Below, in pieces: positions 32,101 through 52,946 of a stretch of 64,000 nucleotides of DNA. The stretch comes from an archaeon (lineage in GTDB: Archaea > Aenigmatarchaeota > Aenigmatarchaeia > GW2011-AR5): NCBI GenBank assembly GCA_028279825.1, contig JANQNA010000006.1:2771-66770 (forward strand). Reading direction: 5' to 3'. Below the pieces are notes generated by a model that searched no databases, was not told the DNA's origin, and was given only the letters and a program-made list of their open reading frames with translations. The position numbers were made by a program, and so were the translations under genes. How positions within the stretch are numbered: the first letter of the stretch is position 1; each line of letters starts with the position of its first letter.

Positions 32101-35100
32101 TGCCACTACAAATGCAGTGGCAATAGGATTTGATGCAATAGCTACTGATCTTGGTGCGATATCCATAGGCGACGATGCTTATACAACCGGTGACGGTAGC
32201 ATAGCAATAGGTGACGGTGCCTGGACTGAAACGGGTATTGCCGATGCGATAGCCATAGGCGACGGTTCAAATGTATCTACAAGGTTTGGTATTTCAATTG
32301 GCAGCGGGTCATTAGCAGTTGCACAAGCTTCAATAGCATTGGGATATACCGCCGAGGCGGAGAACACTAATACTATTGTTATAGGGAACGGCGCAGCCGC
32401 GAGGGGAACGTCTACAAGCGGTATTGCAGTTGGTATTGATTCGTTAGTTACTGGTGCAAGTGGAATTGCAATGGGAGATCGTTCAAATGCCGGTCGCTAT
32501 GCGGTGGCTATAGGACTATTGGCTAACTCTACCGGTGCAAACAGCGCAATTGCGGTAGGATATAGCTCAAAGGCTGATGATCCGGATGCAGTGGCAATCG
32601 GACACAATTCAAATGCACTACAAGACAGAGCAATAGCAATAGGAATGACAGCCAATGCAACCGCTGGTGATTCAATAGCAATTGGCTCTTATACAAATGC
32701 CACGAATTCCGGTTCCGTGGCCCTTGGCCGTGATGCCCAGACCACAGCAGACAACCAGTTAGTAATTGGCAGCCCAAGCTATAATTTGAATACATTGATA
32801 CATGGTTCATTGAACGTCACGGGTGATGTGAATGTTACTAGTGATTATGATTTTTGTATTGACGGCGGTAATTGTCTTAGCAATTTTGCTGACGCTGGAA
32901 ATGTAACAAGCAATGGCTCAGCTGGCTACATACCTGTGTTCACGAACGCTACCAATATCGGCAACAGTATAATGACTGAAGTTCAGGGTGCTATATCGAT
33001 AGACGGCAACCTGAGCATGCCTGGTGCATTCTATATCGGGAACGGTGCGGCTGCCATAGGTAGTGATGCACTGGCTGTCGGTAATAGTGCAACATCTGAA
33101 AATACTTCTACAATAGCAATTGGCGAACTTGCAAACGCGAGCGGTTTGTATTCTACAGCTATAGGCTACAATGCAAGAGCTACACAGAGTGCTGCATTGG
33201 CAATAGGTTCGCCTTATCCATCCGGACAAACCAGAGCCACAGGTACTTATGCAATAGCGATAGGAAACGCACCCGAGGCCCCTGACACCAGTTCAATTGC
33301 TATAGGTACCAGCGCAAACGCAACTGGTACTTACACTGTTGCGATAGGACATAGTGCACAAACGATGGGAGGCAGTCTTGACAGGGCTGTTGCGATTGGG
33401 TATGATACATACGCAGAAGGTTCTGGTGCACTGGCACTTGGATATGAGGCAAGATCAAATGTTGGATATGGGATTGCAATGGGTATGCGTAGTGTTGCAA
33501 ATGGTGCAGGAACCGCAATTGGCTGGAATGCTGATGCTGGTGGAGCTTCATCTGTAGCACTTGGTGGATATGTCCCTAATGCAAGTGCAAATGATGCTAT
33601 AGCAATAGGCTCTTATGTTAATGCAAGCGCTGTTGATACAATTGCAATGGGTCATTTTGCAAGGGCAACACAAACCAATGCAATTGCAATTGGTGAGGAA
33701 GCAAATGCAGCTGGTACTCAGGATATTGCAATTGGTTATCAGGCTGAGAGTCTGGCTAATTATGGTGTTTCAATAGGTTACAATGCTTCTGTGGCTAATA
33801 GCGGTGTTGCTTATGGTACCAGTGCTACGGCTGCCGGCGCCAGTGACACAGGCCTTGGAAGAGCGACAATGGCTGCCGGTGGTAATTCTGTTGCTGTAGG
33901 CTTCCAGGCACAGTCAATTGGAGGAAATTCCGTATCTATTGGCTACAACGCTGACGCAAATGGAACTGATTCAATAATGTTGGGCAGAAGTGCAAGTGCA
34001 ACAGGTGATTATGCTGTTGGAATGGGTGCGATTGCAACTGCAACTTCTGATTATGGCATAGCCTTGGGATATGATGCAAATTCAAGCGGTCTGGATGCAA
34101 TAGCCATAGGTCAAGGTACTGTGGCGTTCCTGGGAAATGCAATAGCCATAGGCAAGGATGCCAATGCAAACAATTCAAATGCTCTTGCGATTATGGTTGA
34201 TGCTGACGCGACTGCTGCTGATACAATTGCTATAGGTCAAAATTCAAAGTCATTAGATAGCTATTCTATATCAATAGGAAATAATGCTAAATCTTTGAAC
34301 CAGAACTCAATAACGATGGGACGTAATGCATTTTCAAGTGGCGGCTCTTCATTGTCAATAGGCAATGCTGCTAATGCCTCTGGTGGATATGGTATTGCAA
34401 TTGGAACGCTTGCAAATGCTTCTCATGATGATAGCGTATGTATTGGATTTAACTGCCAGACAACAGCAAACAATCAATTCATGGTTGGGGCTGGCACGGA
34501 CCCATTGAGTTTGAACGTGACAGGTGATATAAATGTAACGGCCGGTTATGATGTTTGCATTGATGGAGGAAGCTGTTTGAGCACGGGCGGCGGCAGTGGA
34601 AACACAAGCGGTACCGGAGCAGCTGGTTACATACCTCAATGGCAGGACCATGACACTTTGAATAATTCAATCATGTTCCAGGAAGGAACTTACATAGGCA
34701 TAAACACCACAACTCCTGGGTCACCATTGCATGTTGTCCAGGAGGGATTGGACGACATACTTACAATAGGTGCTTACGTAAACACGTATACATGGAACAA
34801 TCTTGTCTTCGAAAGGAGTGGAACCAGTTATGCTTCACCTTCCCAGGTATCCAACGGGGCTAACCTGGCGAGAATTCTATTCAAAGGTTATGACGGTTCG
34901 AGCTATGACAATGCTGCTGCTATTTATGTGCAGGTTGATGGTGCTACAAGTACCAACGACATGCCTGGAAAGTTTGTGTTCTATACTTCAAGGGACGGAA
35001 CAAACTCGATACAACCCAGGATGGTGCTTGATAATATGGGAAGACTTGGTCTGGGTAATGTTAGTGAATATGCTACAAACTTCGACTCCAACTTCACCGC

Positions 35101-37027
35101 AATGCTGCAAATAAACGGTACGAATCCCCAAAATAATCTGTCTTTGGATATTAACGAGATTCTGTACGTGAATTCTTCTTCCGGCTGGGTTGGTATTGGA
35201 GTGAGTGATCCTGGTCGTGGAGATGGTGACGATCCACAATTAACAACTGCAGGTCTTCATATAAAGAACCCTGTTTCTGGAAATGAATCAGCCATAGTCT
35301 TAGAGACCATTAACAGTTCGTGGAAGATACGTAATCTTGACAGGTGGGGACGCTTTTCAATTTCACAATTCTTCCCTGATGGAACCAGCGTAGCACCGTT
35401 TAAGATCTTCAACGGCACAAGTCATAATCAGTTTGTTATACAAGAAAACGGCACCGGTATCGGGACCAACAATCCTAAGGCCTGGCTACACGTTGACGGC
35501 ACAGATCTATACAATAATATTTCCCTGAACGTTAACGACACTCTGTATGTGAATGCATCTGCTTCAAGGGTTGGCATTGGAACAGCGAGCCCTGCTACTA
35601 TGCTGGATGTCAGATCTTCCAGCTCATCGGTAAACCCCGGTATAACCAGTACTAACGATGCCGGTGTGGCTTCTTACTTCTATACTGCCCGTTCCGGTCA
35701 TGCATGGTCCGGGAAGACTGTAATACAGAACAGCGGATCAAGTGATGTGTTTTTCAGTGGCAGCGGAAATGTTGGGGTGGGTGCACAAACTACAAATGCA
35801 AAACTTCATGTCAATGGAACATATTCTACGAGTGGATTGTCCCTGAACGTTAATGACACTTTGTATGTGAACAACTCAAGAGTTGGTATTGGAACCAGCA
35901 GTCCGGGTAATTTGTTCCACGTGAGTGCCGGTCCTTCCGGATCAATAACAAGTTTAGAAGTTTCAGATGATGATGGTACAGATCCGTATAATCTTAATCT
36001 TTACACTGATACTACATATCAAAGAATAATTATGCGTGGTCTTACCGGCACTCAACATCAGGCACTTGTGTTTTCAGATGGTTATGGATATAATACAATG
36101 TTTGGAATAAGTTCCAGCACTGATTCTGGAAGTACCTGGCTTCCTAAGTTTGTCTTACAACAACGCGGACTTGTAGGTATTGGAGCAACAAATCCAGAGG
36201 CATTGTTCCACGTAAATGGAACTGACCCATTCAATGGAAATCTTTCTCTAAATATCAACAACACTTTGTATGTGAATGCTTCCGGAAGAGTTGGTATTGG
36301 AACTTCAGATCCTGATGAAGAATTTGTGATTAGTACTTCATCGGTAAGCCCTGCAATAGAAATTGCAACAACAAGCACAACGAACAATCAAGAAAAAGGA
36401 AAAATAATTTTCTCATCAAATGACAATGATCTAGCGGAGATAAGGGCATACAGAGTAAACAGTACTAATGGTGAGCTTAGGTTTAAGACCAGACAGGCAG
36501 GTACGTTAACCACACACATGGTCATAAATTCTTCCGGGAATGTGGGAATTGGAACTTTGAATCCTTCAATGGAATTGCATGTGAACGGTTCAGTGAACAT
36601 AACTGAAAATATTTTCTATGGCGGCAACCTGACTGGTTATGGGACTGACGTGGCTGAATATGTGAATGGTATAGGTGTTGAGCCTGGTGATGTTGTAATA
36701 ATTTCAGAGTATAGTGACGTAACTGTGGAGAAGACTGACGTAGCTTATGATACAAGAGCAGCCGGAATAGTCTCAACTGCACCTGGTCACACACTTGGTC
36801 TCGGAGAAGGTAACGTCAAGCTTGCGCTGGCAGGCAGAGTGCCTGTCAAGGTAACTACGGAAAACGGATCAATTAATCGTGGTGATTTGTTGACTACTTC
36901 CAGCACACCTGGACATGCTATGAGATGTGAGTCACGCTCTGCATGTACAGGATCAATAATTGGCAAGGCAATGGAGAACTTTTATGGTGATAACGGAGTC
37001 ATAACAGCATTGGTGGTACTAGGGTGA
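26183..37027 (+). CDS. Giant (3614 aa) secreted surface protein: signal peptide, repeated stalk modules, beta-propeller-like repeat block, about 1500-aa array of Hep_Hag (YadA-head-like) repeats, conserved C-terminal domain
   Basis: Uninterrupted 10.8-kb ORF. Signal peptide MTRFLPAILIASLLLLITPPVFA. At least 8 copies of the LSLNVNDTLYVNGSRVGIGTxxPxxxLHVxG module. Eleven 44-aa repeats YNGKLYAGTG...GDVYxFDGSxW (about 28820-29700). From about 30040 to 34480 there are continuous 14-15-aa AIAIGxxAxAxGxxS repeats. CIDGGxCLS disulfide-loop motifs occur. The C-terminal approx 130 aa run GTDVAEYVNG...GDLLTTSSTPGHAMR. N-x-S/T sequons are extremely dense. Confidence 0.85.
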   Translation: MTRFLPAILIASLLLLITPPVFAVPNIIDFQGRLLDNNRNPQGGQFNMTFSIFNESTSGSLLWQENKLVNVSNGLFTVLLGDTIGLNLTFNEDYYVEVIANGETFAPRYRVSTVPYAYRSQYASADNTSEPSFIFERFRNQTSNLTEWQNETGFTMASVDKYGRFVGDGSLLTGIIAAINDSTTDLPATNITPGTFGIHYQNGSYAFPVNLNVTHNLTLGNTTNTLNIYRDDVGNFVFFPNNKSVIFPGRYASGLPALSAVAIGANASVATTHSIAIGTGATVSNVLPSCIVIGSGAVCTENYQLLLGGPDTYIREAYIGGGPTRLNPNTVTLQTSGGIGGSNYGGTIVLAGGKATGTGVPGSVVFKVSNGTAPSSTLQDLVEVGRFNGSTRYFGIGTAATIARLHVAGTENLNNLSLNVNDTLYVNGSRVGIMTPNPTHELHVVGDVNVTGTTYLSTLSVTNLDIPNNLSVGRNFSVGPNTLFVDHSTARVGIGTATPAEELHVIGDINVTGNYAPINVDVVRSAVSAGTYLDFGSNVIDVYASGGLQINTGNIEFYSGTRVPLSITPGSADGVPSTISSGYDQTGWYHPLHYRSGVLDGATAIAHIINTTGNLTTEGAKLVSVQNNGTEKFFIDKDGDTWFNGYLNVTGDVNTTGNVCLSDGTCLSDLGAAAGGWTDDGDVVRLTTVADMVGIGTTNPLAKLNIQGVNDTTGLSLNVNNTLYVNGTNVGIGTGNPQRPIHATENVDGTTGAWFLNPSTGTSALSAVLVGDSTAGGNYGYLGHFGENYADAGLIVANRTILVGSDTAGLVIVSNAASMIFATGGTAASNERMRITANGDIGIGTTNPSDKLHVNGFIQTEVVDWTLKKEFTGANDTVRDLEVYNGKLYAGMGTDLEEGDLFVFNGTDWALEYDFGGDYARVEAMEVYENKLYVGLGNDSLTQGGLADIYFYNGTHWVLSTDLGAEYESVWSLQVYNGKLYAGTGTTDGDGDIWEFDGSTWSLSYNLTGYQYAYPMATYNGKLYVGMGYGADDGDVYSFDGSTWSLAYDFGAQYETIYSLGVHDGKLYAGTGYSGGDAAIYVYDGSSWKLSQSLSPYNGVYSLRSYNGRMYAGLGQDAGEGDVYVLIDGNWTQAADLGAAYEQAWDMEVYNGKLYVGTGSGADDADIFAYSERLESQLTEDLGERFEKFVTTSQHFTDNVSILGILNVTGNTYLSNLTIEGIAMANGDMTVSGNLSVLKNFSVGPNNLFVDNSTGRVGIGTATPSSALEVSGNITITQDAFFIGNRAQATGQDSIAIGNIVNATGLQSIAIGKGANSSNDRTIAIGVNSKAAGQRALAIGWNSEVSGDYGTALGTDSFVNTDGTAIGLGSQATSGSGVAVGRSTYAGNSATALGRAANASGSYSVAIGYTANTTTDASESIAIGLKSMADASYAVVVGSRANATSNNAIAIGYKSNSSNTDTIAIGENARSTGVQSIAIGSDAQATDTGAISIGDDTETSGDGSIAIGDNAWTNTNIADAIAIGRNSNVSTRFAIAIGGGSYAGPQASIALGYGASASVINSVAVGEGALATGSASSGTAIGTDSIVTGASSFAAGASAQAGTRGIAIGNLANASSSTNMIAIGYMSKTNQPDAIAFGHLANAFNDRAIAIGMTANATNSDVIAIGSYTNASGQDSISIGQDAQASNTDAMAMGRQAHANDTDSIALGRGAVVYEAQAIAIGTSAFVDDWGTGEGGLAIGYNARDYGGGGVAIGHDAFIGETDSQSIAIGKSSNATGLYSLAIGASSLSTNQLSVAVGYNSLTHGNSATAYGDSASAAAEGFAAGASADAFGGQSVAVGRSSNSSGQFSTAVGYQARAWNSRGITIGQGANSYGDSGIAIGNVANSTNGYSIAIGRDSEALAESAIAIGGGSGNGARATDLDAIAMGRNSEASQDNAIAIGENANASDQDTIAIGQYARASQANAIAIGENANATTNAVAIGFDAIATDLGAISIGDDAYTTGDGSIAIGDGAWTETGIADAIAIGDGSNVSTRFGISIGSGSLAVAQASIALGYTAEAENTNTIVIGNGAAARGTSTSGIAVGIDSLVTGASGIAMGDRSNAGRYAVAIGLLANSTGANSAIAVGYSSKADDPDAVAIGHNSNALQDRAIAIGMTANATAGDSIAIGSYTNATNSGSVALGRDAQTTADNQLVIGSPSYNLNTLIHGSLNVTGDVNVTSDYDFCIDGGNCLSNFADAGNVTSNGSAGYIPVFTNATNIGNSIMTEVQGAISIDGNLSMPGAFYIGNGAAAIGSDALAVGNSATSENTSTIAIGELANASGLYSTAIGYNARATQSAALAIGSPYPSGQTRATGTYAIAIGNAPEAPDTSSIAIGTSANATGTYTVAIGHSAQTMGGSLDRAVAIGYDTYAEGSGALALGYEARSNVGYGIAMGMRSVANGAGTAIGWNADAGGASSVALGGYVPNASANDAIAIGSYVNASAVDTIAMGHFARATQTNAIAIGEEANAAGTQDIAIGYQAESLANYGVSIGYNASVANSGVAYGTSATAAGASDTGLGRATMAAGGNSVAVGFQAQSIGGNSVSIGYNADANGTDSIMLGRSASATGDYAVGMGAIATATSDYGIALGYDANSSGLDAIAIGQGTVAFLGNAIAIGKDANANNSNALAIMVDADATAADTIAIGQNSKSLDSYSISIGNNAKSLNQNSITMGRNAFSSGGSSLSIGNAANASGGYGIAIGTLANASHDDSVCIGFNCQTTANNQFMVGAGTDPLSLNVTGDINVTAGYDVCIDGGSCLSTGGGSGNTSGTGAAGYIPQWQDHDTLNNSIMFQEGTYIGINTTTPGSPLHVVQEGLDDILTIGAYVNTYTWNNLVFERSGTSYASPSQVSNGANLARILFKGYDGSSYDNAAAIYVQVDGATSTNDMPGKFVFYTSRDGTNSIQPRMVLDNMGRLGLGNVSEYATNFDSNFTAMLQINGTNPQNNLSLDINEILYVNSSSGWVGIGVSDPGRGDGDDPQLTTAGLHIKNPVSGNESAIVLETINSSWKIRNLDRWGRFSISQFFPDGTSVAPFKIFNGTSHNQFVIQENGTGIGTNNPKAWLHVDGTDLYNNISLNVNDTLYVNASASRVGIGTASPATMLDVRSSSSSVNPGITSTNDAGVASYFYTARSGHAWSGKTVIQNSGSSDVFFSGSGNVGVGAQTTNAKLHVNGTYSTSGLSLNVNDTLYVNNSRVGIGTSSPGNLFHVSAGPSGSITSLEVSDDDGTDPYNLNLYTDTTYQRIIMRGLTGTQHQALVFSDGYGYNTMFGISSSTDSGSTWLPKFVLQQRGLVGIGATNPEALFHVNGTDPFNGNLSLNINNTLYVNASGRVGIGTSDPDEEFVISTSSVSPAIEIATTSTTNNQEKGKIIFSSNDNDLAEIRAYRVNSTNGELRFKTRQAGTLTTHMVINSSGNVGIGTLNPSMELHVNGSVNITENIFYGGNLTGYGTDVAEYVNGIGVEPGDVVIISEYSDVTVEKTDVAYDTRAAGIVSTAPGHTLGLGEGNVKLALAGRVPVKVTTENGSINRGDLLTTSSTPGHAMRCESRSACTGSIIGKAMENFYGDNGVITALVVLG
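30040..34480 (+). repeat. Codon-level tandem repeat array (about 100 units of 42-45 bp) encoding Hep_Hag-like AIAIG motifs inside the giant gene
   Basis: Recurrent gcaatagg(n)/attgcaatagg strings encode SIAIGxxAxAxGxxSIAIG. The repeats are in-frame and degenerate, so this is a coding array and not a CRISPR array. Confidence 0.8.
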
Positions 37028-38832
37028 TATATAATCTCAAAAGAAACAGTGTCGTTGTTATATGCCTGATATATCTAGTTTTTGTTCTAGCTATTCCTGT
37101 ACTTGCTGAGTCCAATATTAATATAACAGGATCTATGTATGTTGCCAATGACCTGAATGTTACGGGAAATATATACGGGAGTATATTTGGCGATGGATTC
37201 GTTTTTGGGAATTATACTGTTTCACAGGATCTTACCGTAGGTACGGACATATTTGTTGTTGATACATCGAATGGACGTGTTGGTATCAATCTTACAAGTC
37301 CCGGTGAGGCGTTACAAATAAACGGAAGCATCAATGTGACAGGAGACGTTTGTATAGATGATGGAGCATGCTTGAGCAATGTAACCGGCACCAGCGGGGG
37401 ATGGTTTGATGCAGGTTCAGTGATCGAGTTATCTACTGATACTGATGACCTGAACGCTACGACACTTCTGGTCAATAATACCCTTGGTATGGTCGGAATA
37501 AACACCGTTCCTAACAATACTTTACATGTGAAGGGAGATATACTGCAGACAGTCAATACGCCTTATATCGTTGGTAGTGTTACCGATTCAAATTTTCTGG
37601 ACGGTGCTTCCGGCGTTTATGTTCAGAGTAAATATGCTTATGTTGCAGCTTCTTTGGATGATCGCCTGACCATTGTTGATATTGGTACTCCTTCAAATCC
37701 CAATATTGTCGGCAGTGTTTATGATGTTGCACTGAATTCTGCCAGGGGTGTGCATGTTGTTGGTAAATATGCATACGTCGTATCACAATATAACGATTCA
37801 CTGGTCATCATAGATGTTTCGAACGCTTCAAATCCCGTGATTGTTGGTACTGTTGCAGATAACAGCTTTCTCAACTTCTCAAGCGATGTTTATGTTTCTG
37901 GCAGGTATGCATACGTGGCGGCTACTACAAATAATACTATAGTAGTAATTGATGTTGGAAACCCTTCGGATCCATTTATTACAGGAACAATTGAGGACTC
38001 TTCAAATCTCAACTATCCAAGAAGAGTTTATACACAGGGAAGATATGCTTACGTTGCAAGTCAGCTTAGTGACAGCATGACAATAATTGATGTCAGTGAT
38101 GTGACAAATCCTGTGATCGTTGGTAATGTTACTGATACAGGGCTTGACTATGCCAGTGATGTTTATGTTTCAGGAGGCTATGCCTACGTTACGTCTTATA
38201 ATAACGACAGTCTTAACGTAATCAATGTTACTGATCCATCAAATCCCAATATTGTCGGTAATGTAAGTGATGTAAGACTTGATGGTGCCTGGTCTGTGAA
38301 AGTTATGGGAAAGTATGCATACGTTGTATCTTATGATAATGATTCACTGACGGTCATAGATGTAAGCGACTCAAGTGATCCCGTTATTGTTGCAAGTATA
38401 ACAGATATAAAATTAGAATCCGGTTACGGCATTGACGTTAGCGGCAAATACGCATATGTTGCGACGGATGCGAATGATAGTTTAACAGTTCTGGAAATTC
38501 CAGGTATTGATGCACCCACAGCTTCTATCGGATCTGTTGAGTCAAATCGATTACATGTGACAGAAAACATAGTTATTGGCAATGATGCTTATGCCGGCGG
38601 TGTGGCAGTTGGCGGCGGCACTATGGTAGACGGTGCGGCAAGCCTTGATAACCGCACGATAACAGTTACCGAAACGGGAAAGGTTGGTATAAATAACACA
38701 AACCCTGCACAGAGCCTTGACATTGTTGGAAACCTCAATGTTTCTGGTAACGGTTCAGATCCTTACATTTATTTTGCTTATGGAGGTTACATCCATGACA
38801 ATGGCACTCACATTGTCATAGGACACTGGTGA
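37024..38832 (+). CDS. LVIVD-repeat beta-propeller surface protein (paralog A, 602 aa)
   Basis: N-terminal anchor/signal (VVVICLIYLVFVLAIPVLA). A stalk module with GRVGINLTSPGEALQINGSINVTGDVCIDDGACLS. About 10 repeats of about 43 aa with the LxIxDxSxPxxPxIVG signature (LTIVDIGTPSNPNIVG, LVIIDVSNASNPVIVG...). Conserved C-terminus ...YIYFAYGGYIHDNGTHIVIGHW. Confidence 0.8.
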   Translation: MIYNLKRNSVVVICLIYLVFVLAIPVLAESNINITGSMYVANDLNVTGNIYGSIFGDGFVFGNYTVSQDLTVGTDIFVVDTSNGRVGINLTSPGEALQINGSINVTGDVCIDDGACLSNVTGTSGGWFDAGSVIELSTDTDDLNATTLLVNNTLGMVGINTVPNNTLHVKGDILQTVNTPYIVGSVTDSNFLDGASGVYVQSKYAYVAASLDDRLTIVDIGTPSNPNIVGSVYDVALNSARGVHVVGKYAYVVSQYNDSLVIIDVSNASNPVIVGTVADNSFLNFSSDVYVSGRYAYVAATTNNTIVVIDVGNPSDPFITGTIEDSSNLNYPRRVYTQGRYAYVASQLSDSMTIIDVSDVTNPVIVGNVTDTGLDYASDVYVSGGYAYVTSYNNDSLNVINVTDPSNPNIVGNVSDVRLDGAWSVKVMGKYAYVVSYDNDSLTVIDVSDSSDPVIVASITDIKLESGYGIDVSGKYAYVATDANDSLTVLEIPGIDAPTASIGSVESNRLHVTENIVIGNDAYAGGVAVGGGTMVDGAASLDNRTITVTETGKVGINNTNPAQSLDIVGNLNVSGNGSDPYIYFAYGGYIHDNGTHIVIGHW

Positions 38833-38836
38833 TAGT

Positions 38837-41800
38837 ATGAAATATATTATTCCGATTGTTATGATGACAATCTTAGTTACTGTTAGTCCTGTTTTTGCTG
38901 CTGAGGGTGATGAAGATACAACAAACTGGAACTTATCATACTCCAATGGTACAGCTGATGAGGTCAGAGCCATTGTTATTGATAGTAATAACAACGTCTA
39001 TATTGCGGGCCATTTGGGACAGGGGGCTGCAACACTTAATTGGACTATCAAAAAATTTAATTCTTCTGGTGCGGAGGATGCAGAAAACTGGAGTATAAGT
39101 TTTGGATATCCTTCGAGTAATAGACTTGAAGACGCAACGATAGACAATGATGGCAATTTGTATTTTGTTGGATCTTTTATAATCACCGGTGACCGGGATG
39201 CTATAATAAAAAAATACTATCCTAACGGTACAGAAATAGTGACAGGATGGAACAAGACTTTCATTGGTAGTGATTCTGCTGATGATGAAATGCAGGCTGT
39301 GGCCATCGACAGTAATAACAATGTTTATGTGGGTGGTTTTGGAAATGATCTGGTTAGTGGTAGCAGTGGTTATGACTGGTGGATCAAGAAGTTTTCTTCT
39401 GACGGTACGGAGGATACAAGCAATTGGAACAAGACATATGATAGAGGTGCCGTTGATGTTGTCAGCAAAATAGCTATAGACAGCGAAGACAATGTATTCG
39501 TTGTTGGTTATGGGGAAGACTTAGCAGGTGCCAGTACTAATCAGGACTGGTGGATCAAGAAGTTTTCTTCTGACGGTACGGAAAATATGTCTTGGAATAA
39601 GAATTTTACCGGTAATGATGCTACTGCCAATAATGATGCTTCTTATGATGTTGCAATTGATTGTGAGGATAGTGTATATGTTGTTGGCGTTGGAGACGAT
39701 CTAATTAGTGCAAGTTCCAACATGGATGCATGGGTCAAGAAATTCTTTAAGAACGGCACGGAGGACTATACCTGGAACAAAACATTTGAATACGAAGCCG
39801 ATGAGGATACTGCTTTTAGTGTAGCTGTTGACTTATCGGGTGATGTTTACGTTGGTACATATGCAGACAATGTGGTTGACGCTACCTCTAACACAGACTG
39901 GTGGATCAAGAAATATTCTTCAGACGGCATAGAGGATGCTGATAACTGGAATTTGACATTTACTACCGGTGCTGGAACTCGGACATCTTATCTCTATGCA
40001 ATTGAATCTGATAACAGTAACAGTGTTTATGCTGGTGGTTATGGTGTTGGTGCAACAGGAACTACTAACCCTGACTGGTGGATCAAGAAGTTTGAGGGAG
40101 GTCCTATAGATCCGTTGTGTGTATATGGTCGTTCCAACATAAACATTACTGGATCTTCAACTTTTGGTGTTGACGTAAATGTTACTGGTAGAATCTATGA
40201 ACCTAAATTCGGTAACAGTTATGTTCCTGGAAATTTTGATATTACACAAAATCTTTCTGTAGGTTCCAATACTTTATTTGTTGACGTTCTGAACGGAAGG
40301 GTCGGGATAGGGATAACACCTACGGTGACTCTCTACGTGGACGGAGACATTAACGTTACTGCAGATGTTTGTATTGATGGGAGCAGCTGTTTAGGCACCG
40401 GTATTATTGGAGAAGGTATATGGTACGACAACGGTGCGGAAGTCAAATTAAATACAAGCACTGATGATTTAAACGCCACGACACTTTTCGTGAATAACAC
40501 TCTGGAAATGGTTGGAATAAACACTGTTCCCAACAAAACTTTGCATGTAAAAGGGTATATATTGCAAACGGTTACAACTAATGCAAGTATTGTAGGCAGG
40601 ATAGAGAGCTCAAACCTGGACCAAATCTATAATGTTTATGTTCAAGACAGATATGCATATACTGTTACAAATGTCGGCAGGGTTGGTATTATTGACATTA
40701 CAGATAAAACCAACCCTAGTTTTGTCGGTACGTTGTATGATGTAAACAAACTAAATGGCGGCAAATCAATCCAGGTAGTTGGAAAGTATGCCTATGTAGC
40801 TTCATCGACTGCAGATACATTGACCATAATAGATGTTTCTAATGCGTCAAAGCCTGTTGTTGTTGGAAATGTAACGGACGAGATAATTCTGAACGGTTCA
40901 TTTGGGTTATACGTAAGCGGCAAATACGCCTACATTGCCGCTCTGTATGGACAATTCGTGATAGTTGATATTTCAGATCCTGCAACCCCCACGATTGTTA
41001 GCAATATTTCAAAGACTGATGCCATAGGTGTTTATGTACAGGGAAAATACGCCTATCTTGGAACCAGGGGTACTAGTACATTTTCAGCTATAGACGTTTC
41101 AGATCCTTTAAATCCCCGGATTGTTGGTGAAGTATCTGATGCAGCTTATCTTAACGGTAGTACGGGTATCTATGTAAGCGGCAAATACGCCTACGTTGCG
41201 TCTTATTACAAACCTGCAAGTACTGATTATCTGACAATTCTTAATGTCAGCAACCCCAGCAATCCTCATATTGTAGGTACTTATACACAAACTGGTATGG
41301 ATGGAGCTTTTGATGTTCAAGTTGCAGGCAAATACGCTTACCTTACAGCCTGGTACAATGACAGATTTTTTGTGTTTGATATCTCGGATCCGGAAAACCC
41401 TATAAAAGTATCAGAACTTCATGATTCCAATTTTCTGGACGGATCTAAGGCTTTGCATGTTGCAGGCAAATACGCCTACGTTGTAGCTTACGGCAATGAC
41501 AGTCTTGCGATTATTGATCTTGATGGAATAGATGCACCCACAGCTTCTATCGGGTCCGTTGAAGCAAATCAATTACATGTTACGGATAATATGCAGGTTA
41601 CCAATGATTTTTATGTTGGAAGCGGTCTAAATGTCGGTGGAAGTATAATTTCTGACGGACCTGCTGCTTTCACGAATGGCACAATATTCACAATAAATGG
41701 GACTGTAGGCATCAACAACACAAAACCAACTCAGGCTCTTGACGTTGCGGGAAACATAAATGTTAGCGGTAATGGCAGTTATCCATACATCTACTTTGGC

Positions 41801-41854
41801 AAAGGCGGATACATCTATGACAATGGTACACACACCATTGTGGGACATGATTGA
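38837..41854 (+). CDS. SBBP beta-propeller plus LVIVD beta-propeller surface protein (paralog B, 1005 aa)
   Basis: Signal MKYIIPIVMMTILVTVSPVFA. The N-terminal half has about 7 repeats with NNVYVxGxxxxxxxDWWIKKFSSDGTEDxxNWNKT (SBBP / PF06739-like). The middle carries the shared stalk module (ADVCIDGSSCLG). The C-terminal half is LVIVD repeats. It ends ...YIYFGKGGYIYDNGTHTIVGHD. Confidence 0.8.
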   Translation: MKYIIPIVMMTILVTVSPVFAAEGDEDTTNWNLSYSNGTADEVRAIVIDSNNNVYIAGHLGQGAATLNWTIKKFNSSGAEDAENWSISFGYPSSNRLEDATIDNDGNLYFVGSFIITGDRDAIIKKYYPNGTEIVTGWNKTFIGSDSADDEMQAVAIDSNNNVYVGGFGNDLVSGSSGYDWWIKKFSSDGTEDTSNWNKTYDRGAVDVVSKIAIDSEDNVFVVGYGEDLAGASTNQDWWIKKFSSDGTENMSWNKNFTGNDATANNDASYDVAIDCEDSVYVVGVGDDLISASSNMDAWVKKFFKNGTEDYTWNKTFEYEADEDTAFSVAVDLSGDVYVGTYADNVVDATSNTDWWIKKYSSDGIEDADNWNLTFTTGAGTRTSYLYAIESDNSNSVYAGGYGVGATGTTNPDWWIKKFEGGPIDPLCVYGRSNINITGSSTFGVDVNVTGRIYEPKFGNSYVPGNFDITQNLSVGSNTLFVDVLNGRVGIGITPTVTLYVDGDINVTADVCIDGSSCLGTGIIGEGIWYDNGAEVKLNTSTDDLNATTLFVNNTLEMVGINTVPNKTLHVKGYILQTVTTNASIVGRIESSNLDQIYNVYVQDRYAYTVTNVGRVGIIDITDKTNPSFVGTLYDVNKLNGGKSIQVVGKYAYVASSTADTLTIIDVSNASKPVVVGNVTDEIILNGSFGLYVSGKYAYIAALYGQFVIVDISDPATPTIVSNISKTDAIGVYVQGKYAYLGTRGTSTFSAIDVSDPLNPRIVGEVSDAAYLNGSTGIYVSGKYAYVASYYKPASTDYLTILNVSNPSNPHIVGTYTQTGMDGAFDVQVAGKYAYLTAWYNDRFFVFDISDPENPIKVSELHDSNFLDGSKALHVAGKYAYVVAYGNDSLAIIDLDGIDAPTASIGSVEANQLHVTDNMQVTNDFYVGSGLNVGGSIISDGPAAFTNGTIFTINGTVGINNTKPTQALDVAGNINVSGNGSYPYIYFGKGGYIYDNGTHTIVGHD

Positions 41855-41855
41855 T

Positions 41856-43646
41856 ATGAATAGTAAAATAATTTTTCTAATGGTCCTGCTTAGTGGCGTT
41901 GGCTTTGCGGTATCGGACATAAATATTACAGGCAGCTCGTTCATAGACGTAGATCTTAACGTTACCGGAAGGATTTCAGGAAAAATTGCCGCTACGGGTA
42001 TTTCAGGAAATCTGAGTATTGTAGAAAATCTCTCTGTGGGTTCTGGTACTTTATTTGTTGACGCTCTGAACGGAAGGGTCGGAATAGGAGCAATGCCTCT
42101 GACAACTTTGTACGTATCGGGTAATATCAATGTCACTAGCGGTAATGACATATGTATAGACAATTTGTATTGTCTTACTACTGCTAACATCAGTGCAGGT
42201 GGCTGGACTGATGAAGGCGCACTGGTAAGGTTAACGATGAGCACAGACGATATCAATGCCACAACATTATTTATCAACAATACTCTAAGAATGGTTGGAA
42301 TAAATACTGTTCCCAATGCTACGCTGCATGTAAGCGGTACTCTTTTACAAGACCCTAATAAAACAATGTCTGTTGTTGGAAGCGTTACGGACGGACCAAA
42401 AATGGAAAACGCCAGATCTCTTTATGTTCAGGGCAAATATGCATACGTGACGTCACAAACAAACGACAGTTTGACTATCATAGATATATCCGACCCAACA
42501 AATCCCGTAATTGTTGCCTACCATACAAATAGTACAGGGCTTGAACAGGCTGCTGATATTTTTGTCAAGGGCAAGTATGCTTACATTGCCGGTCTTGCAC
42601 GTGATGCTCTGAGTATAATAGACGTATCCAATGTTACAAACCCAAAAAAAGTGAGTGAGGTCAGAGATACTTCCAGGCTGGACGGAATTGCTTATCCTTA
42701 CATTTCTGGCAAATACGCCTACGTTGCCAGCTACTTGAATGACAGCTTATCCGTTATAGATATATCCGATCCGACTTCAGCATCTATAGTAGGGTACGTT
42801 ACAAATAGCACAGTTCTGGAGGGTGCTGTGGCTGTTAAGGTTCAAGGCAGCTATGCTTACGTAGCTTCTCAAAACAATGATTCTTTAACGATAATAGATG
42901 TGTCAAATCCGGCCGAACCTTTCATTGTCGGCAGTGTGACGGATCTAAGACTTGAGGTTGCATGGGATGTTTATGTATCAGGCGGATATGCTTATGTACC
43001 CGGCAGATATAACGATAGTCTGTGCATTATAAATGTGACGGATGTATCAAAACCTTCTATAATAGGTTTTATTGTTGACAGTTCTAATATCGAGGGAGCA
43101 ATTGGCGTTACCGTACAAGGCAATTATGCTTACTTGGCATCTATTGTTTCTGGCAGCCTTTCTGTTATTGACATCTCAGACAAGACAACACCAAGAATCA
43201 TATCCACTCTTTCAGAAACTGGATTGACTGGTGCTACGCGCGTCTTTGTATCTGGAAAATATGCATACGTTGTGGCAAACACTAATGACAGCTTAACTGT
43301 GGTGGACATTGTCGGTATAGATTCATCAACGGCTTCTATAGGAGCTTTGGAAAGTAGTACGGTTCATGTTATAGAGAACGCAAAAATTGGTAATGATGTT
43401 TATGTGACAGGTGGTCTAATGACTGATGGACTGAAGATTGACGGGCCTGTCAGCTTCATGAATGATACACTGATAACGACATCTGCCGGTAGAGTAGGAA
43501 TCAATAATACAAACCCAACACAGGTATTGGATGTTGGCGGTAACATTATGGTGAACGGATCAGGCGGAAACGATCCTTACATTTATTTCGGAAAGGGCGG
43601 ATACATATATGATAACGGAACAGATCTGGTGTTCGGACATGGATAA
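41856..43646 (+). CDS. LVIVD-repeat beta-propeller surface protein (paralog C). The start is reset to the ATG at 41856, immediately after the upstream stop.
   Basis: MNSKIIFLMVLLSGVGFAVS signal/anchor. Stalk module with ICIDNLYCLT. About 10 LVIVD repeats (LTIIDISDPTNPVIVA...). It ends YIYFGKGGYIYDNGTDLVFGHG. The track ORF from 41760 overlaps the previous gene and adds non-homologous residues. Confidence 0.8.
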   Translation: MNSKIIFLMVLLSGVGFAVSDINITGSSFIDVDLNVTGRISGKIAATGISGNLSIVENLSVGSGTLFVDALNGRVGIGAMPLTTLYVSGNINVTSGNDICIDNLYCLTTANISAGGWTDEGALVRLTMSTDDINATTLFINNTLRMVGINTVPNATLHVSGTLLQDPNKTMSVVGSVTDGPKMENARSLYVQGKYAYVTSQTNDSLTIIDISDPTNPVIVAYHTNSTGLEQAADIFVKGKYAYIAGLARDALSIIDVSNVTNPKKVSEVRDTSRLDGIAYPYISGKYAYVASYLNDSLSVIDISDPTSASIVGYVTNSTVLEGAVAVKVQGSYAYVASQNNDSLTIIDVSNPAEPFIVGSVTDLRLEVAWDVYVSGGYAYVPGRYNDSLCIINVTDVSKPSIIGFIVDSSNIEGAIGVTVQGNYAYLASIVSGSLSVIDISDKTTPRIISTLSETGLTGATRVFVSGKYAYVVANTNDSLTVVDIVGIDSSTASIGALESSTVHVIENAKIGNDVYVTGGLMTDGLKIDGPVSFMNDTLITTSAGRVGINNTNPTQVLDVGGNIMVNGSGGNDPYIYFGKGGYIYDNGTDLVFGHG

Positions 43647-45096
43647 TAAGAAGTTAATCGTGATTGCGACAATCGGGCTTTTGTTTATGGTTAGTGCTAT
43701 CTTTGCTGCTGAAAAGGATATATACGATGAATGGAACATGAGTTATAGTGTTGGTAGTGAAGACGGACTTTATTCTATAAGTATTGATAATGAAGGAAAC
43801 GTATACTCCGGGGGCAGGCTGGGAACAGCTGGCATTAATATTCGCTTTGAAGTAATGAAACATAATTCTTCCGGGGATTTTGAATGGAATCGTAGTTTGG
43901 TAGCTGGTACCTGGTCACAGGCCTATGATACTGCAGTTGACAGTGAAGGTAATTTGTATGCAGTTGGCAGAGAGTGGTACACCACCAATAATCTTCAAAT
44001 AAAGAAATATTATCCTAACGGAACACTTGCATGGAACATAACAGATGATACAGGTGTTAGGATAGCTTTTGGTGTTGCCGTTGACGATAACGATCACATT
44101 TTTGTTGTTGGTTTATGCACCGACTGCTTCAATAGTACCAGTGGTTATGACTGGATTATAAGAAAATATAACTCTTCAGGTGCAGAAAATTTTACACATT
44201 GGAACAAAACAATTGATGCAAAGGCTTCGGATGATATAGCGCGAGATATTGTTATTGATAGTACTGGTGATATTTACGTGGTTGGAAGAGCAAGCAATAT
44301 TGTTACTACCACTAGCGGTGAAGACTGGTGGATCAAGAAATTTCATCCAAACGGGACTGAATATACAACAGCTGAAGGCTGGAATATAACATTTGATAGC
44401 GGGAGTAATGATGATTATGCAATGCATGCTGCAATTGATTGCGAGGATAATATATATGTAACAGGAACTGATTTTAATGCTCTTAGTGGAAGCAGTAATG
44501 ATGATTGGCGAATCAAAAAATACCAGTCTGATGGTACAGAAATAACTACAGGCTGGAATAAAGTAGAAGGAGATGACACGGACGGCTATGATACACCTAG
44601 GGGGGTGGAGGTTGACCAATCGTGTGATGTATACCTTACTGGAATTTTTCAACCAGCCCAGGGATTCACTGATACCAATTGGATTATAAAGAAATACAAT
44701 TCTACAGGAGCGGATCTTAACTGGAATATCACACTTGATGGTGGTGGGGCTAATACTCCCGATGAAGGATCTGCTATAGCTGTTGATGCCAATAATGATG
44801 TTTTCTTTGGTGGTGAATATTACGAAGCTACTGGGAATACTACAAATAGTGTAGACTGGTTTATGATTAAGTATCAGGGTGGTACAAAATGTAATCTTTG
44901 GGATGTTGATACGTGGACCATTGGCAGCAACAGAACGTGTACAGGACGGAACCTTAACTTTACCAATTTGACTATAACAGAAGGCGGGTCTTTGAGCCTA
45001 TGGGGCGGGACGAATCTGTCTGTTACCAACCTGAATATATCCACAACGGGTGATGCAATCTTTATAGAAGCCGGGAGCAAATTAGTAATAGGATGA
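43639..45096 (+). CDS. SBBP-repeat beta-propeller protein with C-terminal beta-helix-like segment (paralog D). The start is reset to the ATG at 43639.
   Basis: MDNKKLIVIATIGLLFMVSAIFA signal. Repeats NLYAVGREWYTTNNLQIKKYYPNGT / DWWIKKFHPNGTE / DWRIKKYQSDGTE (SBBP-like). The C-terminal segment NLNFTNLTITEGGSLSLWGGTNLSVTNLNISTTGDAIFIEAGS resembles parallel beta-helix rungs. Confidence 0.7.
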   Translation: MDNKKLIVIATIGLLFMVSAIFAAEKDIYDEWNMSYSVGSEDGLYSISIDNEGNVYSGGRLGTAGINIRFEVMKHNSSGDFEWNRSLVAGTWSQAYDTAVDSEGNLYAVGREWYTTNNLQIKKYYPNGTLAWNITDDTGVRIAFGVAVDDNDHIFVVGLCTDCFNSTSGYDWIIRKYNSSGAENFTHWNKTIDAKASDDIARDIVIDSTGDIYVVGRASNIVTTTSGEDWWIKKFHPNGTEYTTAEGWNITFDSGSNDDYAMHAAIDCEDNIYVTGTDFNALSGSSNDDWRIKKYQSDGTEITTGWNKVEGDDTDGYDTPRGVEVDQSCDVYLTGIFQPAQGFTDTNWIIKKYNSTGADLNWNITLDGGGANTPDEGSAIAVDANNDVFFGGEYYEATGNTTNSVDWFMIKYQGGTKCNLWDVDTWTIGSNRTCTGRNLNFTNLTITEGGSLSLWGGTNLSVTNLNISTTGDAIFIEAGSKLVIG

Positions 45097-46054: not shown

Positions 46055-46561
46055 ATGTTAACTAGCAACGAGAATAGTGTACTCGCTGTATTCTTCCATG
46101 ATCCGGAAGGACGCTACTATATTAGAGAGCTGGCACGGATGACTGGGTTGTCAGCGCCGGGTATACTGAAAATCGTTGACAGACTGAGGAGACAAAGTCT
46201 CCTCAGAACAGAGAAAAAACTGGCAGTTACGAATGTTTGTGCCGGTGAAGAAAGGTTCTTCCAGGCGAAGAGGCTTTACAATATTGATTCTTTGTACGAT
46301 TGTGGTTTGGTTGATTTCCTTCGGAAAGATGATCCTGAGGCAATAGTTGTATTTGGTTCTTACTCAAACGGATTTGACAAAAAAGATGATACAATAGAGA
46401 TAGCTGTGATAACTGAAGAAACTCATAAATTCAAACTGGAAAAATTTGAAGCTAAACTAAAGAGGAAAATATCTGTAAAGCAGATCAACTCACCGTCATC
46501 TATGGGTGAACTGGAGAAGCTCGCTAATGGCGTTGTTCTTTACGGGAGCCTGAGCTTATGA
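46055..46561 (+). CDS. Winged-HTH plus minimal nucleotidyltransferase (Pol-beta superfamily) domain protein
   Basis: N-terminal wHTH (YIRELARMTGLSAPGILKIVDRLRRQSLL). NTase core IVVFGSYSNGFDKKDDTIEIAVI (GS...D.D motif). Its stop overlaps the start of the LamG gene (ATGA). Confidence 0.55.
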   Translation: MLTSNENSVLAVFFHDPEGRYYIRELARMTGLSAPGILKIVDRLRRQSLLRTEKKLAVTNVCAGEERFFQAKRLYNIDSLYDCGLVDFLRKDDPEAIVVFGSYSNGFDKKDDTIEIAVITEETHKFKLEKFEAKLKRKISVKQINSPSSMGELEKLANGVVLYGSLSL

Positions 46562-49500
46562 TGAAATATCTGTTAATCGTATTATTGCTGCTTTCTGGCG
46601 TAGCGGCAGCTCACACAGTTACGATGAATTTTGCCGTAAGGATTGAAGACAACGCAAGCAGCACGGTACGTGTTAATGATTCTGATTATACAACTTCTGC
46701 TACATTCACGAATCTTACCAGAGATTACATATCTGTTAACAGATCAAATGTTCTGGCTGCACTTGTGTCAGCGGGCAACATGTTCAATGCACGTATAAAC
46801 ACAAGTTTCTACAAGGATCTTGTAAACGAGACAGTTCTTATGATGCTGCATCTGGATAACAGCACATTAGACTCAAGCCAATATGGGAATTATGTAGTTG
46901 CGCGTAATGGTCTGGATTGTTCTCCAAGTGTGTCAGGTAAACTGAATACTGCGTGTAGCTTTGACGGTTCTGATGATTTCCTTAACAGAACAAAAATACC
47001 TGATATTGAGGGATCGGTGAACTATACTATAGCTATGTGGATCAAGACGGCGGGAGTTATATCAACACTTATTTTTGACTTTTTGGACACGACTGATACG
47101 GACTGGAATAATGGGACACAGTTTAGAATGATGTCCCAAGGTTCGGGAGCAACATCTAATTTGACTTCAAACACAACAACTGTATATTCTACATTAACAG
47201 ATACAAACGAATCTGACTGGGGCGGTACGTTCATTAACATGGCCGCGCAAGGTGCAAACAACGACAACATAACATCCAATAATGTTTCCGGCGAATACGT
47301 GGATACATTTGGTGCTTCTGTATACTCAAACTGGACAAACATAACTGTGAATACAGAAGCTTACTATGGAACTGAAGTTGGAAGAGGTTATGGAGATGGT
47401 GTTGATACAACTTTGCCTTCTGTTAATATGTCTGAATTGATTGGATTATGGCATTTGAATGATCGTGTTGCTGATAGTGAAGGAGAGAATCACGGTCTTG
47501 CGCAGAATGGCGCGCAGATAAACACAAGCGGTAGAATTGGTAATGCTGGTCAGTTTGATGGCGTTGATGACAGGGTTGATATATCATTTTCCGAGTCATT
47601 GAATTTTTCCGGACTGGAAGAGATTTCCATATCTACATGGTTCTGGGCAAAACCAAATCAGGAAGATGCCGATCCTAGACTTGTTAACCAGGGGAATGAA
47701 ATAGTCCTTAGAATTGATGCGGCTAATCAACAAATTGACTGGATTTTGAATAGTTTTGTCGGAACTGATAGAGTTAATTCTTTTTCAGACTCATTTAACT
47801 TTAGTATCTGGAACCATGTAATTGGTACATTCAATGGATCAAATCTAACGATATATATCAATGGGAAATTTGAAAGGTCTGCGAATGTTGGTACCGGTAC
47901 GTATGGTGGTGATTTGAATAGCTGGGCAATAGGATTTAATTCTCCTGGAGTGGGTTATAAACCATTCAACGGTTCAATAGATGATGTTGCAATATACAAT
48001 CGAACACTATCTGCTGGAGAAGTTAATGACTTGTTTGTAAGAGGTAATTCCAGCCTGGATAATAACGTAACATGGGGCAGGGTAGCTTACTGGAAGATGG
48101 ATGAGGATACTTGGTCTGTGAAGGATTCTTCTGGCCAGAATAATAATGGAACATCAATTGATGGCGTTTTGTATAACTCCAGTGCCGTATTTAATTCTTC
48201 CTTGACTTTTGATGGAATTGATGACGTTGTTACGTTACCAGCGAGTCTTATAAATGTCGGAGAGTCAGTGACCATATCTGCATGGTTCAATTCCAATAAC
48301 ATTACTGCGCAGGATGGCATTATAGAAAGTCTGGACAGTTCTTATCACGGATATTACATGGGATTCGAAACCGGGTCTGCAGATCAGGTACGCTGTTATT
48401 TCGAGAACAATGATACTGATTCTTTGACAGTTATAGCAACTACTGTTTTGGAAAACAATAATTGGTATCACACACTTTGCAGTTATGATGGTTCCACTCT
48501 TCGTATTTATTTGAATGGAAACGAACAGGATTCCGGTGCTCTAACAGGAAATATAAGCCTTGGTGAGATTCCAAGAATTGGTGCTTATGATGAAGGTTCT
48601 GACACTAATTTCAACGGTTCTATAGACGAAGTTGCAATTTGGAACAGGACACTTTCTGCAGAGGAAATAAAGAACCTGTACCTACGCGGCGCGTGGAGAT
48701 TGAATCTATCTGTTCGTAGTTGTGATGACTCTGCGTGCAGCGGTGAGAGCTTCGCTCCTGTCACAGATACAAACTTCATGGGTGGGACAGCTTCGCTGTC
48801 TGCTCAGGGCAAGTTTTTCCAGTACAACCTGACTTATGTAAACAAAACAGAAATAAACCTGTCTTCTGACAACCTTACAGTGAATGATGTTACTGTTAAT
48901 CTAAAAAGTGACGTTGTAACAACAGGTCATTTCCTTTCACAGATCTTTGATGCCAATACAACAGTTACGTGGAACAACATAAGTGTCTCAAGTGAAGCGT
49001 ATTATGGTACGGAGGTTGGTAGGGGTTATGGTGACGGTGATGTTGGTTTACCTTCTGTAAATACAACTGGACTGGTAGCTCTGTATCACTTCAACAATGA
49101 AAGTGCCTACAATGAGAATGACACACATGTGTATGATTTTTCCGGGTTTGGTAACAACGGTACAATTGTAAACGATTCATATTATGAATTGAATGACAAA
49201 GTGTTCGGTGCTTCTTCAATAACATTCAGTGGAAATAACAGTTATGTTGATTTCGGGAGTGATATCAACATCAGTGGAATTAGAAACTTTACGATTAGTT
49301 TATGGATTAATCCTGAGACTTGGGATCATGTACGTTTCAATGGTATAATATCCAAAAGGGATAATTTTACTATGGAGTATGACTGGGAAATTTATTATGA
49401 TAATGCCACTAGGGAGATAAGGATGGGTATTGGTCCTGGTCCTGCTGAATGGCTCTTTCTTAATGATGATGTTAATCCTTCTACAGGTGTGTGGCATCAC

Positions 49501-52553: not shown

Positions 52554-52946
52554 ATGAAAGGATACATATACACGATAGAAGTTTTGCTGGCACTTTCATT
52601 AGTGTTAGTAATGATTGTTTTCATATTCAGCAGTACACCTGAGCAGCCTGAAACAAGTTTAGTGGTGATAAAGCAGACCGGTTATGATGCGTTGCATTAT
52701 CTGGATCAGACAGGTATGCTAAGAGATGCTGTTAGCAGAGAAGCCTATGGTGAGATAGCAGCAAACGTGACGGAAATGATGCCAAACAGCATCAAGTCAG
52801 ATGTTGCTATATGTACTGCTACGTTCTGTGAATCGTTTAAGATACCGGTTAACAGAACCATTGTTGCTGTCGATTATTATGTGTCCGGATATGAACAACA
52901 GTATCTTGAAAAGAAAGTGAGGTTATGGTTATGGCCAAGGTTCTAG
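52554..52946 (+). CDS. Pilin-like protein (130 aa) with class III-type N-terminus
   Basis: MKGYIYTIEVLLALSLVLVMIVFIF has KG then a hydrophobic helix with Glu at +6, resembling type IV pilins. It starts 1 nt after the previous stop. Confidence 0.45.
   Translation: MKGYIYTIEVLLALSLVLVMIVFIFSSTPEQPETSLVVIKQTGYDALHYLDQTGMLRDAVSREAYGEIAANVTEMMPNSIKSDVAICTATFCESFKIPVNRTIVAVDYYVSGYEQQYLEKKVRLWLWPRF

Follow-up and report, generated by a model that had tools for sequence, protein, structure and literature searches.

The present data concern a stretch of 64,000 nucleotides, hereafter the window, from a contig of an archaeon of the Aenigmatarchaeota (GenBank assembly GCA_028279825.1, contig JANQNA010000006.1, positions 2,771 to 66,770), and within it a run of five same-strand genes, termed G0, G1, G2, G3 and G4, at positions 26183-45096. 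An archaeal origin of the window is indicated by an archaeal signal recognition particle RNA at 57014-57285 together with genes of the TFIIB, GGGP synthase and G1P-dehydrogenase types. Three of the five genes, G1, G2 and G3, encode secreted proteins that carry beta-propellers and stop in a shared motif of 23 residues, and the model that we propose, and to which we accord an even chance, is that these are trimeric fibre adhesins on which the terminal motif acts as a foldon-like end-cap. The parts of this model are not equally secure. That G0-G3 belong with phage tail fibres and the MAT fibres of Bdellovibrio as fibre adhesins is, as judged from their sequences, highly probable, while the proposal that the motif itself is a trimerisation or cap element falls slightly short of an even chance. 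A role as structural terminator or trimerisation element is nevertheless the better explanation, as it accounts for more of the evidence than does a sorting signal.

The consensus end of G1-G3 is PYIYF(G/A)xGGYI(Y/H)DNGTxxxxGHx-stop, with 15 of the last 23 residues invariant among the three proteins, whose chains close on ...DNGTHIVIGHW, ...HTIVGHD and ...DLVFGHG, respectively. The motif reads PYIYFAYGGYIHDNGTHIVIGHW in G1 (38761-38829, plus strand), PYIYFGKGGYIYDNGTHTIVGHD in G2 (41783-41851, plus strand) and PYIYFGKGGYIYDNGTDLVFGHG in G3 (43575-43643, plus strand). An earlier note on this DNA, made from the letters alone, had described a near-identical C-terminus in three of the last four genes, and this description holds for G1, G2 and G3, the motif being absent from G4. 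The chain always ends one residue past the GH pair (G-H-x-stop), and there is no transmembrane helix. Across the last 23 columns of the G1-G3 alignment the mean pairwise identity is 72.5%, compared with a median of 48%, which ranks these columns 30th of 568 and places the motif among the best-conserved 5% of 23-residue segments. Inside the motif, synonymous codons vary freely among the paralogs, and its conservation therefore reflects purifying selection on the protein rather than recent gene conversion. The motif begins approximately 86 residues beyond the last LVIVD blade, from which it is separated by a neck (GIDAPTASIG...NDxYVGxG...) and one more capping loop (VGINNTxPxQxLDV). This distance, and the occurrence of the motif at the end of proteins without an LVIVD domain, dispose of the possibility, raised in the earlier note, that it is simply the last strand of the LVIVD propeller; the suggestion that the motif is not a product of chance likewise stands. 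A literature search for the motif string found no paper.

The strict form of the motif (GGYI[YH]DN...GHx-stop) was scanned for in 185,579 species genomes, 241 million metagenome records and protein collections, and was found in few places outside the window, approximately eight distinct proteins being found in total. It closes a 1472-residue stalk-repeat fibre with no propeller (P0111), a protein from an Aenigmarchaeota metagenome-assembled genome (MAG; locus L001) in which a G0-like N-terminal domain and heptad-like repeats lie upstream of it, a 763-residue fibre-like protein with different repeats (locus L002), and three near-identical 64-residue proteins that comprise an N-terminal hydrophobic segment and the motif only (P0273-P0275; L003 1123-1335, L004 551-763). 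The 64-residue proteins end in GGYIYDNGTxVIIGHK and are encoded on short contigs among small, tightly packed same-strand open reading frames (ORFs). The L001 motif gene (1646-2795) is split between two frames near 2330-2400, either by an assembly frameshift or as a pseudogene, and its NCBI annotation covers a 49-residue product only (P0276). Four different chassis of the fibre-like kind end in the strict motif, each time as G-H-x-stop; the motif is independent of LVIVD, rare and strictly terminal. A word-indexed homologue search with the 109-residue C-terminal module found nothing, and the same kind of search with a 42-residue motif alignment returned four proteins; because the word index overlooked known carriers (G1-G3 and P0111), rarity is indicated rather than quantified. 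A viral origin was also considered and is not supported, no relatives of the motif, or of the L003 or L002 neighbour proteins, having been found in IMG/VR. A PHROGs search yielded an HNH endonuclease and weak unknowns only, and tblastn against GenBank phages gave no more than weak matches, below significance, between the capping loop and cyanophage tail-fibre genes, which in no case covered the terminal motif, and no match for the L003 neighbours.

The 109 C-terminal residues of G2 were modelled as a monomer with AlphaFold2 from a five-row alignment, and the result is all-beta with a predicted local distance difference test (pLDDT) score of 63.5. Strands at residues 89-91 (IYF), 95-99 (GYIYD) and 104-108 (TIVGH) of the model form a three-strand meander with a terminal hairpin, and residues N100-H103 lie in the turn. 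The pair N-G is prone to form tight beta-turns. In this low-confidence model, the 23-residue motif would thus appear as a small three-strand beta-meander that ends in a hairpin. A single-sequence AlphaFold2 model of G3 reached a pLDDT of 43.6 and exceeded 70 in part of the propeller only. A profile of the 42-residue motif matched designer 'Pizza' propellers in the PDB; these matches were rejected as spurious, as they consisted only of summed repeat matches of 2-4 bits.

The chassis on which the motif sits is more readily placed. The stalk modules of G1-G3 follow the pattern NINITG...GRVGIG...CIDxxxCL...MVGINTVPNxTLHV and contain the capping loop VG(I/G/N)xxxPxxxL, of which there are three per protein in G1-G3 and at least eight in G0. 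A profile of the C-terminal module matched Bdellovibrio fibre structures in the PDB (8ond, which is Bd2133, E=2e-10; 8ojn, 6.4e-4; 8ol4, 2.9e-3; also 8oml) as well as MyRF (7dc3), and every one of these matches passes through the capping-loop segment VGIxxxxPxxxLxV. The capping loop has been defined as V-G-G/N-pi-x-x-P-x-x-x-L on the edges of the trimeric beta-helices of MAT fibres and phage S74 tail fibres (PMC10769870). An exhaustive hidden Markov model search with the C-terminal-module profile against 1.84 billion representative proteins matched 13,641; the best 150 of these are nearly all giant multi-repeat proteins aligned at profile positions ~17-50, the stalk loop, and two among the best 150 carry the terminal motif. 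The giant protein G0 contains an N-terminal domain, at least eight capping-loop stalk modules, three Cys-loop modules (C-I/L-D/S-x2-3-C-L/S) and 20 stretches of YadA_head repeats (E=2.9e-110). The YadA_head repeat is a hallmark of obligate trimeric adhesins. The claim of the earlier note that the stalk module is also repeated inside G0 is borne out by BLASTP matches at four to six places (E down to 1e-10). On these sequence matches, the stalk modules can be identified as the known and widespread chassis of triple-beta-helix fibres, and the reading that suits G0-G3 best is that of fibre adhesins whose trimeric state is suggested by the capping loops, by relatives that bear Peptidase_S74 and by the YadA_head repeats of G0. 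The N-terminal domain of G0 differs from the start of G1 and G3, which begin straight with the NINITG stalk module after the signal peptide, and is common to the L001 protein, P0182 and P0256. About eight Kelch-like repeats (YNGKLYxGxG) at residues ~860-1190 of G0 may form a further mid-chain propeller, and the C-terminal domain of G0, of ~125 residues (DVAEYV...GDVV...GRVPVKV...), has no match in Pfam and none of significance in the PDB.

Relatives of G3 indicate what may otherwise occupy the end of such a fibre. A search with full-length G3 returned 1861 proteins, and source-named matches come from DPANN archaea (Aenigmarchaeota, Woesearchaeota and Nanoarchaeota), from bacteria of the candidate phyla radiation (CPR; Pacebacteria and Patescibacteria), and from Bacteroidota, Promethearchaeota and other groups, with one CPR match annotated as 'tail fiber domain-containing protein'. 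Many of these homologues share the propeller and a neck of the form GIDxPSAxIG...NxLYVGxG, yet differ at the C-terminus. Some end in Peptidase_S74 (P0241, 46.5 bits; precomputed PF13884 entries for P0160, P0180, P0202, P0209, P0215 and others), with SD(x)R(L/I)K sites visible in P0202, P0209, P0215 and P0261, while others end in type IX secretion system (T9SS) sorting domains, in Cys-containing tips (...GNYTxGNCW...TNCT) or in short ends of the form ...YYNxT...YNGTxW.... Looser relatives of the motif are seen in P0182 and P0164, which are collinear with the whole 110-residue C-terminal module of G1-G3 and end in ...GGVQYYNGTCMIIEG(+9) and ...SGRIYHNGTHLIIEG, respectively. In a Pfam search, PF13884 (Peptidase_S74, with its SDxxxK autoproteolytic site) did not match G1-G4. 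As relatives built on the same propeller and neck end in S74 or in other tips, the motif therefore stands in the position of an exchangeable terminator of the fibre.

Taken together, these observations permit the construction of a model for the assembly of the fibres. This model proposes that G1, G2 and G3, along with G0, are exported by Sec as cell-surface fibre adhesins with a trimeric beta-helical stalk, the edges of which would be closed by the VG(I/G/N)xxxPxxxL capping loops. Each chain of G1-G3 would present a seven-bladed LVIVD propeller, to which G2 adds an SBBP propeller, as a ligand-binding head between the N-terminal stalk and the C-terminal neck. The 23-residue meander (YIYF, the turn GxGG, YIYD, a type-I'-like NG turn, and xIVIG) would then end the fibre, most likely as a foldon-like trimerisation or registration element and end-cap that replaces the Peptidase_S74 chaperone or other tip. 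G4, in this model, is a separate SBBP propeller protein with a conserved tail of its own, probably a co-expressed accessory or a further adhesin.

Several known systems resemble this arrangement in part. The non-S74 MAT fibres of Bdellovibrio bacteriovorus (Bd2133 and Bd1334; PDB 8ond, 8ojn, 8ol4 and 8oml; PMC10769870) are likewise signal-peptide-bearing secreted fibres with repeated capping loops, multiple paralogs, swappable C-terminal ends with or without S74, and a proposed adhesin role. Their tips are of S74 and non-S74 kinds and are interchangeable by 'tip swapping', all 21 Bdellovibrio MATs have a conserved beta-rich N-terminal domain of ~130 residues directly after the signal peptide, and a possible interplay with type IV pili has been raised (Caulton et al. 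2024, PMC10769870). However, G1-G3 are archaeal, their LVIVD head (with or without SBBP) lies mid-chain rather than at the C-terminal tip, and they end in a 23-residue motif as opposed to a folded tip domain of ~100 residues or more. The phage tailspikes and tail fibres that bear S74, such as the K1F endosialidase and the T5 L-shaped tail fibre, which are cited in PMC10769870 as well, also have a propeller in each chain, followed by a capping-loop stalk and a terminator, and close LVIVD relatives of G3 bear a C-terminal Peptidase_S74. The order in phage endosialidases is propeller, triple-beta-helix stalk and S74 chaperone. In contrast, G1-G3 lack S74, their propeller is of the LVIVD type with no enzyme signature found, and their genomic context is cellular. 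The foldon sits at the C-terminal end of T4 fibritin, and the motif resembles it in being very short, in lying at the extreme C-terminus of a fibrous protein and, in the low-confidence model, in consisting of beta structure only, with a terminal hairpin; further, the motif of the L001 relative comes after coiled-coil segments of heptad-like character, an order that is also that of fibritin. The foldon is a 27-residue beta-hairpin mini-domain that drives trimerisation (PMC12644675). The two have no detectable sequence homology, however, and the G2 model has three strands, whereas the foldon has a hairpin after a polyproline-II segment. Finally, the propeller repeats of G1-G4 match those of archaeal LVIVD/SBBP surface proteins (PF08309 and PF06739; Adindla et al. 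2004, PMC2447325), in which this repeat family was first described, although the stalk modules and terminal motif of G1-G3 are not covered by any family of Pfam or NCBIfam in the database copies searched.

A number of points weigh against the end-cap model. Both AlphaFold2 runs were of monomers and gave low to moderate confidence (pLDDT of 43.6 for G3 and 63.5 for the G2 C-terminal module), and a Foldseek search of the PDB with the monomer model of this module gave no match at E<=0.001. The likeness to the foldon is one of position and secondary structure only, with no sequence similarity demonstrated. The retention of the fibre on the cell after signal-peptide cleavage is left unexplained, the 64-residue proteins are not obviously accounted for by a fibre cap, and a motif that recurs, always at the C-terminus, on secreted proteins with no other relationship also resembles a sorting or docking tag. 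In addition, the best-conserved segment of the G1-G3 alignment is not the terminal motif but the N-stalk segment TDDLNATTLxVNNTLxMVGINTV, at 87% identity. It is possible on this ground that the motif has no special role and represents ordinarily conserved last strands of the stalk, common to three clear paralogs through tandem duplication. However, the presence of the motif with G-H-x-stop on different chassis in other assemblies (the Aenigmarchaeota MAG and several metagenomes), and the scrambling of synonymous sites within it among the paralogs, make this an improbable account. Sorting is less probable by far. Archaeosortase and exosortase signals are tripartite, with a signature motif, a transmembrane helix and a basic tail. 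The window does encode a protein of the exosortase/archaeosortase family (5721-6314, plus strand, 197 residues; PF09721 E=1.4e-8; TIGR04178 48.2 bits, cut-off 23), and the motif, like PGF-CTERM, PEF-CTERM, VPXXXP-CTERM and other such signals, is conserved and strictly C-terminal on several secreted proteins, which could suggest that this enzyme, or another dedicated one, cleaves it and anchors the proteins covalently to the surface. Yet the chain of G1-G3 stops one residue past GH with neither a hydrophobic helix nor a basic tail, NCBIfam CTERM-type models gave no match to G1-G4, and the candidate gene is 31 kb from the motif genes, with lipid-synthesis, helicase and tRNA genes intervening. 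Further, no sortase gene was seen at L002 (partly scanned), L006/L007 or L009, all loci being fragments of 16 kb or less, and, of the surface proteins of the window, a single one was seen to have a membrane anchor of the classical C-terminal type, a transmembrane helix with a basic tail, and this is a different protein (23624-25804, minus strand; 726 residues, which include Big/Ig-like domains and a stalk rich in Cys). An archaeosortase-type signal for sorting or anchoring, one of the roles considered in the earlier note, is thus not upheld, and we consider enzymatic processing of the motif highly improbable.

An alternate scenario, unlikely although better placed than the two above, is that the motif is a partner-docking tag, in which case the fibre would attach to another component through its exposed C-terminal beta-meander, either by beta-sheet augmentation or by co-assembly. 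Candidate partners are the downstream G4-type protein, a membrane-anchored motif mini-protein, a pilus formed by the type-IV-pilus-like system next to the fibre genes, and the S-layer. The 60-residue tail of G4 (44914-45093, plus strand), which is beta-helix-like with a Cys...Cys pair and ends TTGDAIFIEAGSKLVIG-stop, matches the extreme C-terminus of an 802-residue repeat protein encoded after the motif-bearing gene at L002 (L002 8050-8235; BLASTP E=8e-9, 35% identity over 62 residues, the extreme C-terminus in both). The common second tail reads ...GGxLxLxxGxNxxxTxLxxxTTGDxxFxxxxSxLxIG-stop, so that in two unrelated loci the gene after the motif gene or genes has the same kind of end, which suggests a conserved gene pair. 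The 64-residue proteins could be membrane anchors that co-assemble with fibre ends, and the constant G-H-x-stop spacing suggests that a free C-terminus matters. Some bacterial LVIVD proteins have prepilin N-termini, and the surroundings of the fibre genes are themselves pilus-like. Upstream lie a prepilin peptidase gene (11545-12339, minus strand), genes at 17703-21720 (plus strand) for a FlaI-like ATPase (379 bits, under the equivalog cut-off), a KaiC/FlaH-like ATPase and two T2SSF/FlaJ-like proteins, and a pilin-like ORF (22737-23468, plus strand); downstream lie a gene for a protein with four LamG-type domains (46558-50637) and pilin-like genes (DUF7266, DUF7287+LamG; 50638-54348, plus strand). 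By their sequences, these genes form a type-IV-pilus/archaellum-like assembly set that brackets the fibre genes in a putative surface-appendage island. The P0164 locus (L009) has the same pilin-like operon with an LVIVD fibre directly after it, and this recurrent linkage would fit a role in adhesion. However, no G4-type neighbour is present at L001, L006/L007 or L009, where some neighbour genes are cut by contig ends, and no motif-bearing mini-protein is encoded in the window. A related proposal, for which we see a slim chance, holds that the translationally coupled paralogs G1, G2 and G3 either form a G1:G2:G3 heterotrimeric fibre, in which the N-stalk, neck and meander set the register of three different heads, or carry a new archaeal docking tag that clips onto the motif mini-protein or the type-IV-pilus-like apparatus, the surface attachment being non-covalent, and of another kind than sortase signals provide, in either case.

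All five genes of the fibre run are on the plus strand, and the tight packing that had been noted for the last four is confirmed. G0 (26183-37027), which encodes a giant secreted fibre protein of 3614 residues, overlaps G1 by 4 nt, G1 and G2 are separated by 4 nt and G2 and G3 by 1 nt, and G3 overlaps G4 by 8 nt. Sec-type N-terminal signal peptides can be read directly from the sequence of all five proteins, in which N-x-S/T sequons are dense (3.2-4.2 per 100 residues). G1 (37024-38832; 602 residues, GTG start) comprises a signal peptide (residues 1-29), the N-stalk (30-175; 37111-37548), a seven-bladed LVIVD propeller (176-493; 37549-38502), the neck with its capping loop (494-579; 38503-38760) and the terminal motif (580-602). 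In G2 (38837-41854; 1005 residues, ATG start), the signal peptide is followed by an SBBP propeller (22-432; 38900-40132), an internal stalk (433-577; 40133-40567), an LVIVD propeller (578-896; 40568-41524), the neck (897-982; 41525-41782) and the motif (983-1005). G3 (41856-43646) has 596 residues when counted from the ATG that yields a signal peptide, one public gene call beginning earlier to give 609 residues (P0047), and consists of the N-stalk (20-165; 41913-42350), LVIVD propeller (166-486; 42351-43313), neck (487-573; 43314-43574) and motif (574-596). G4 (43639-45096; 485 residues, ATG start) has a signal peptide and an SBBP propeller (43711-44913) ahead of its tail.

The propeller types are shuffled among these genes, as had been suggested, Pfam assigning LVIVD to G1 and G3, SBBP and LVIVD to G2, and SBBP to G4. 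The LVIVD (PF08309) scores are 156.6 bits for G1, 127 bits for G2 and 171.6 bits for G3 (cut-off 20.2), those for SBBP (PF06739) are 23.3 bits for G2 and 32.3 bits for G4 (cut-off 20.5), and NCBIfam matches of the delta-60/LipL53 type fall under their cut-offs. Seven xYAYV blades can be read in each of G1, G2 and G3; a regular expression for the blades recovered all seven in G1 and in G2 but overlooked the GNYAYLAS blade of G3, for which it counted six. The proposal that the four genes are paralogs requires amendment. G1, the C-terminal 573 residues of G2, and G3 are 49-52% identical to one another end to end over ~580 residues by BLASTP, while G4 is paralogous only to the SBBP half of G2, matching its N-terminal 432 residues (39.6% identity, E=1e-72) and giving no BLASTP match to G1, G3 or G0. 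As G4 matches the N-terminal half of G2 alone, the gene set is a mosaic and not a group of four equal paralogs. Similarly, the common N-terminal stalk module is present in G1 and G3 but is internal in G2 (residues 433-577), and G4 has none.

Other features of the window are peripheral to the fibres. The fibre cluster is followed by a gene for a helix-turn-helix protein with a Polbeta-type nucleotidyltransferase domain (46055-46561, plus strand), and at the P0111 locus a Polbeta nucleotidyltransferase and HEPN pair occupies the equivalent place (L006 5449-6553), followed by a giant beta-helix/LVIVD protein; the two loci may thus share a conserved synteny with a toxin-antitoxin-like pair. For the exosortase/archaeosortase-family protein, the closest subfamily models are ArtE and XrtH, all under their cut-offs, and after its gene come those for two long, charged proteins of coiled-coil-like character (6298-8951, plus strand), with no obvious substrate adjacent. 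A protein of 1104 residues with a GH10 (xylanase) domain (E=1.5e-105) is encoded at 60491-63805 on the minus strand, and a tRNA gene at 13730-13879 on the minus strand probably contains an intron, as the match spans 150 nt.

The class of tail-fibre/MAT-like fibres to which these proteins are assigned is known, and their novelty lies in the motif at their end and in an archaeal design that places the propeller mid-chain. According to their sources, several relatives come from DPANN archaea and CPR bacteria, small microbes that depend on a host. A life attached to other cells is assumed for organisms of this kind, and to our knowledge their adhesins are largely uncharacterised. The locus represents an archaeal version of the tail-fibre/MAT chassis with propeller heads, embedded in a type-IV-pilus-like island, with a very short element at the fibre end as an alternative to the S74 chaperone. 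Should the motif prove to trimerise or cap fibres autonomously, it would constitute a compact natural foldon-like tag and a marker for finding such fibres; should it serve for docking instead, it would indicate that archaea have a further, as yet unknown mode of surface attachment.

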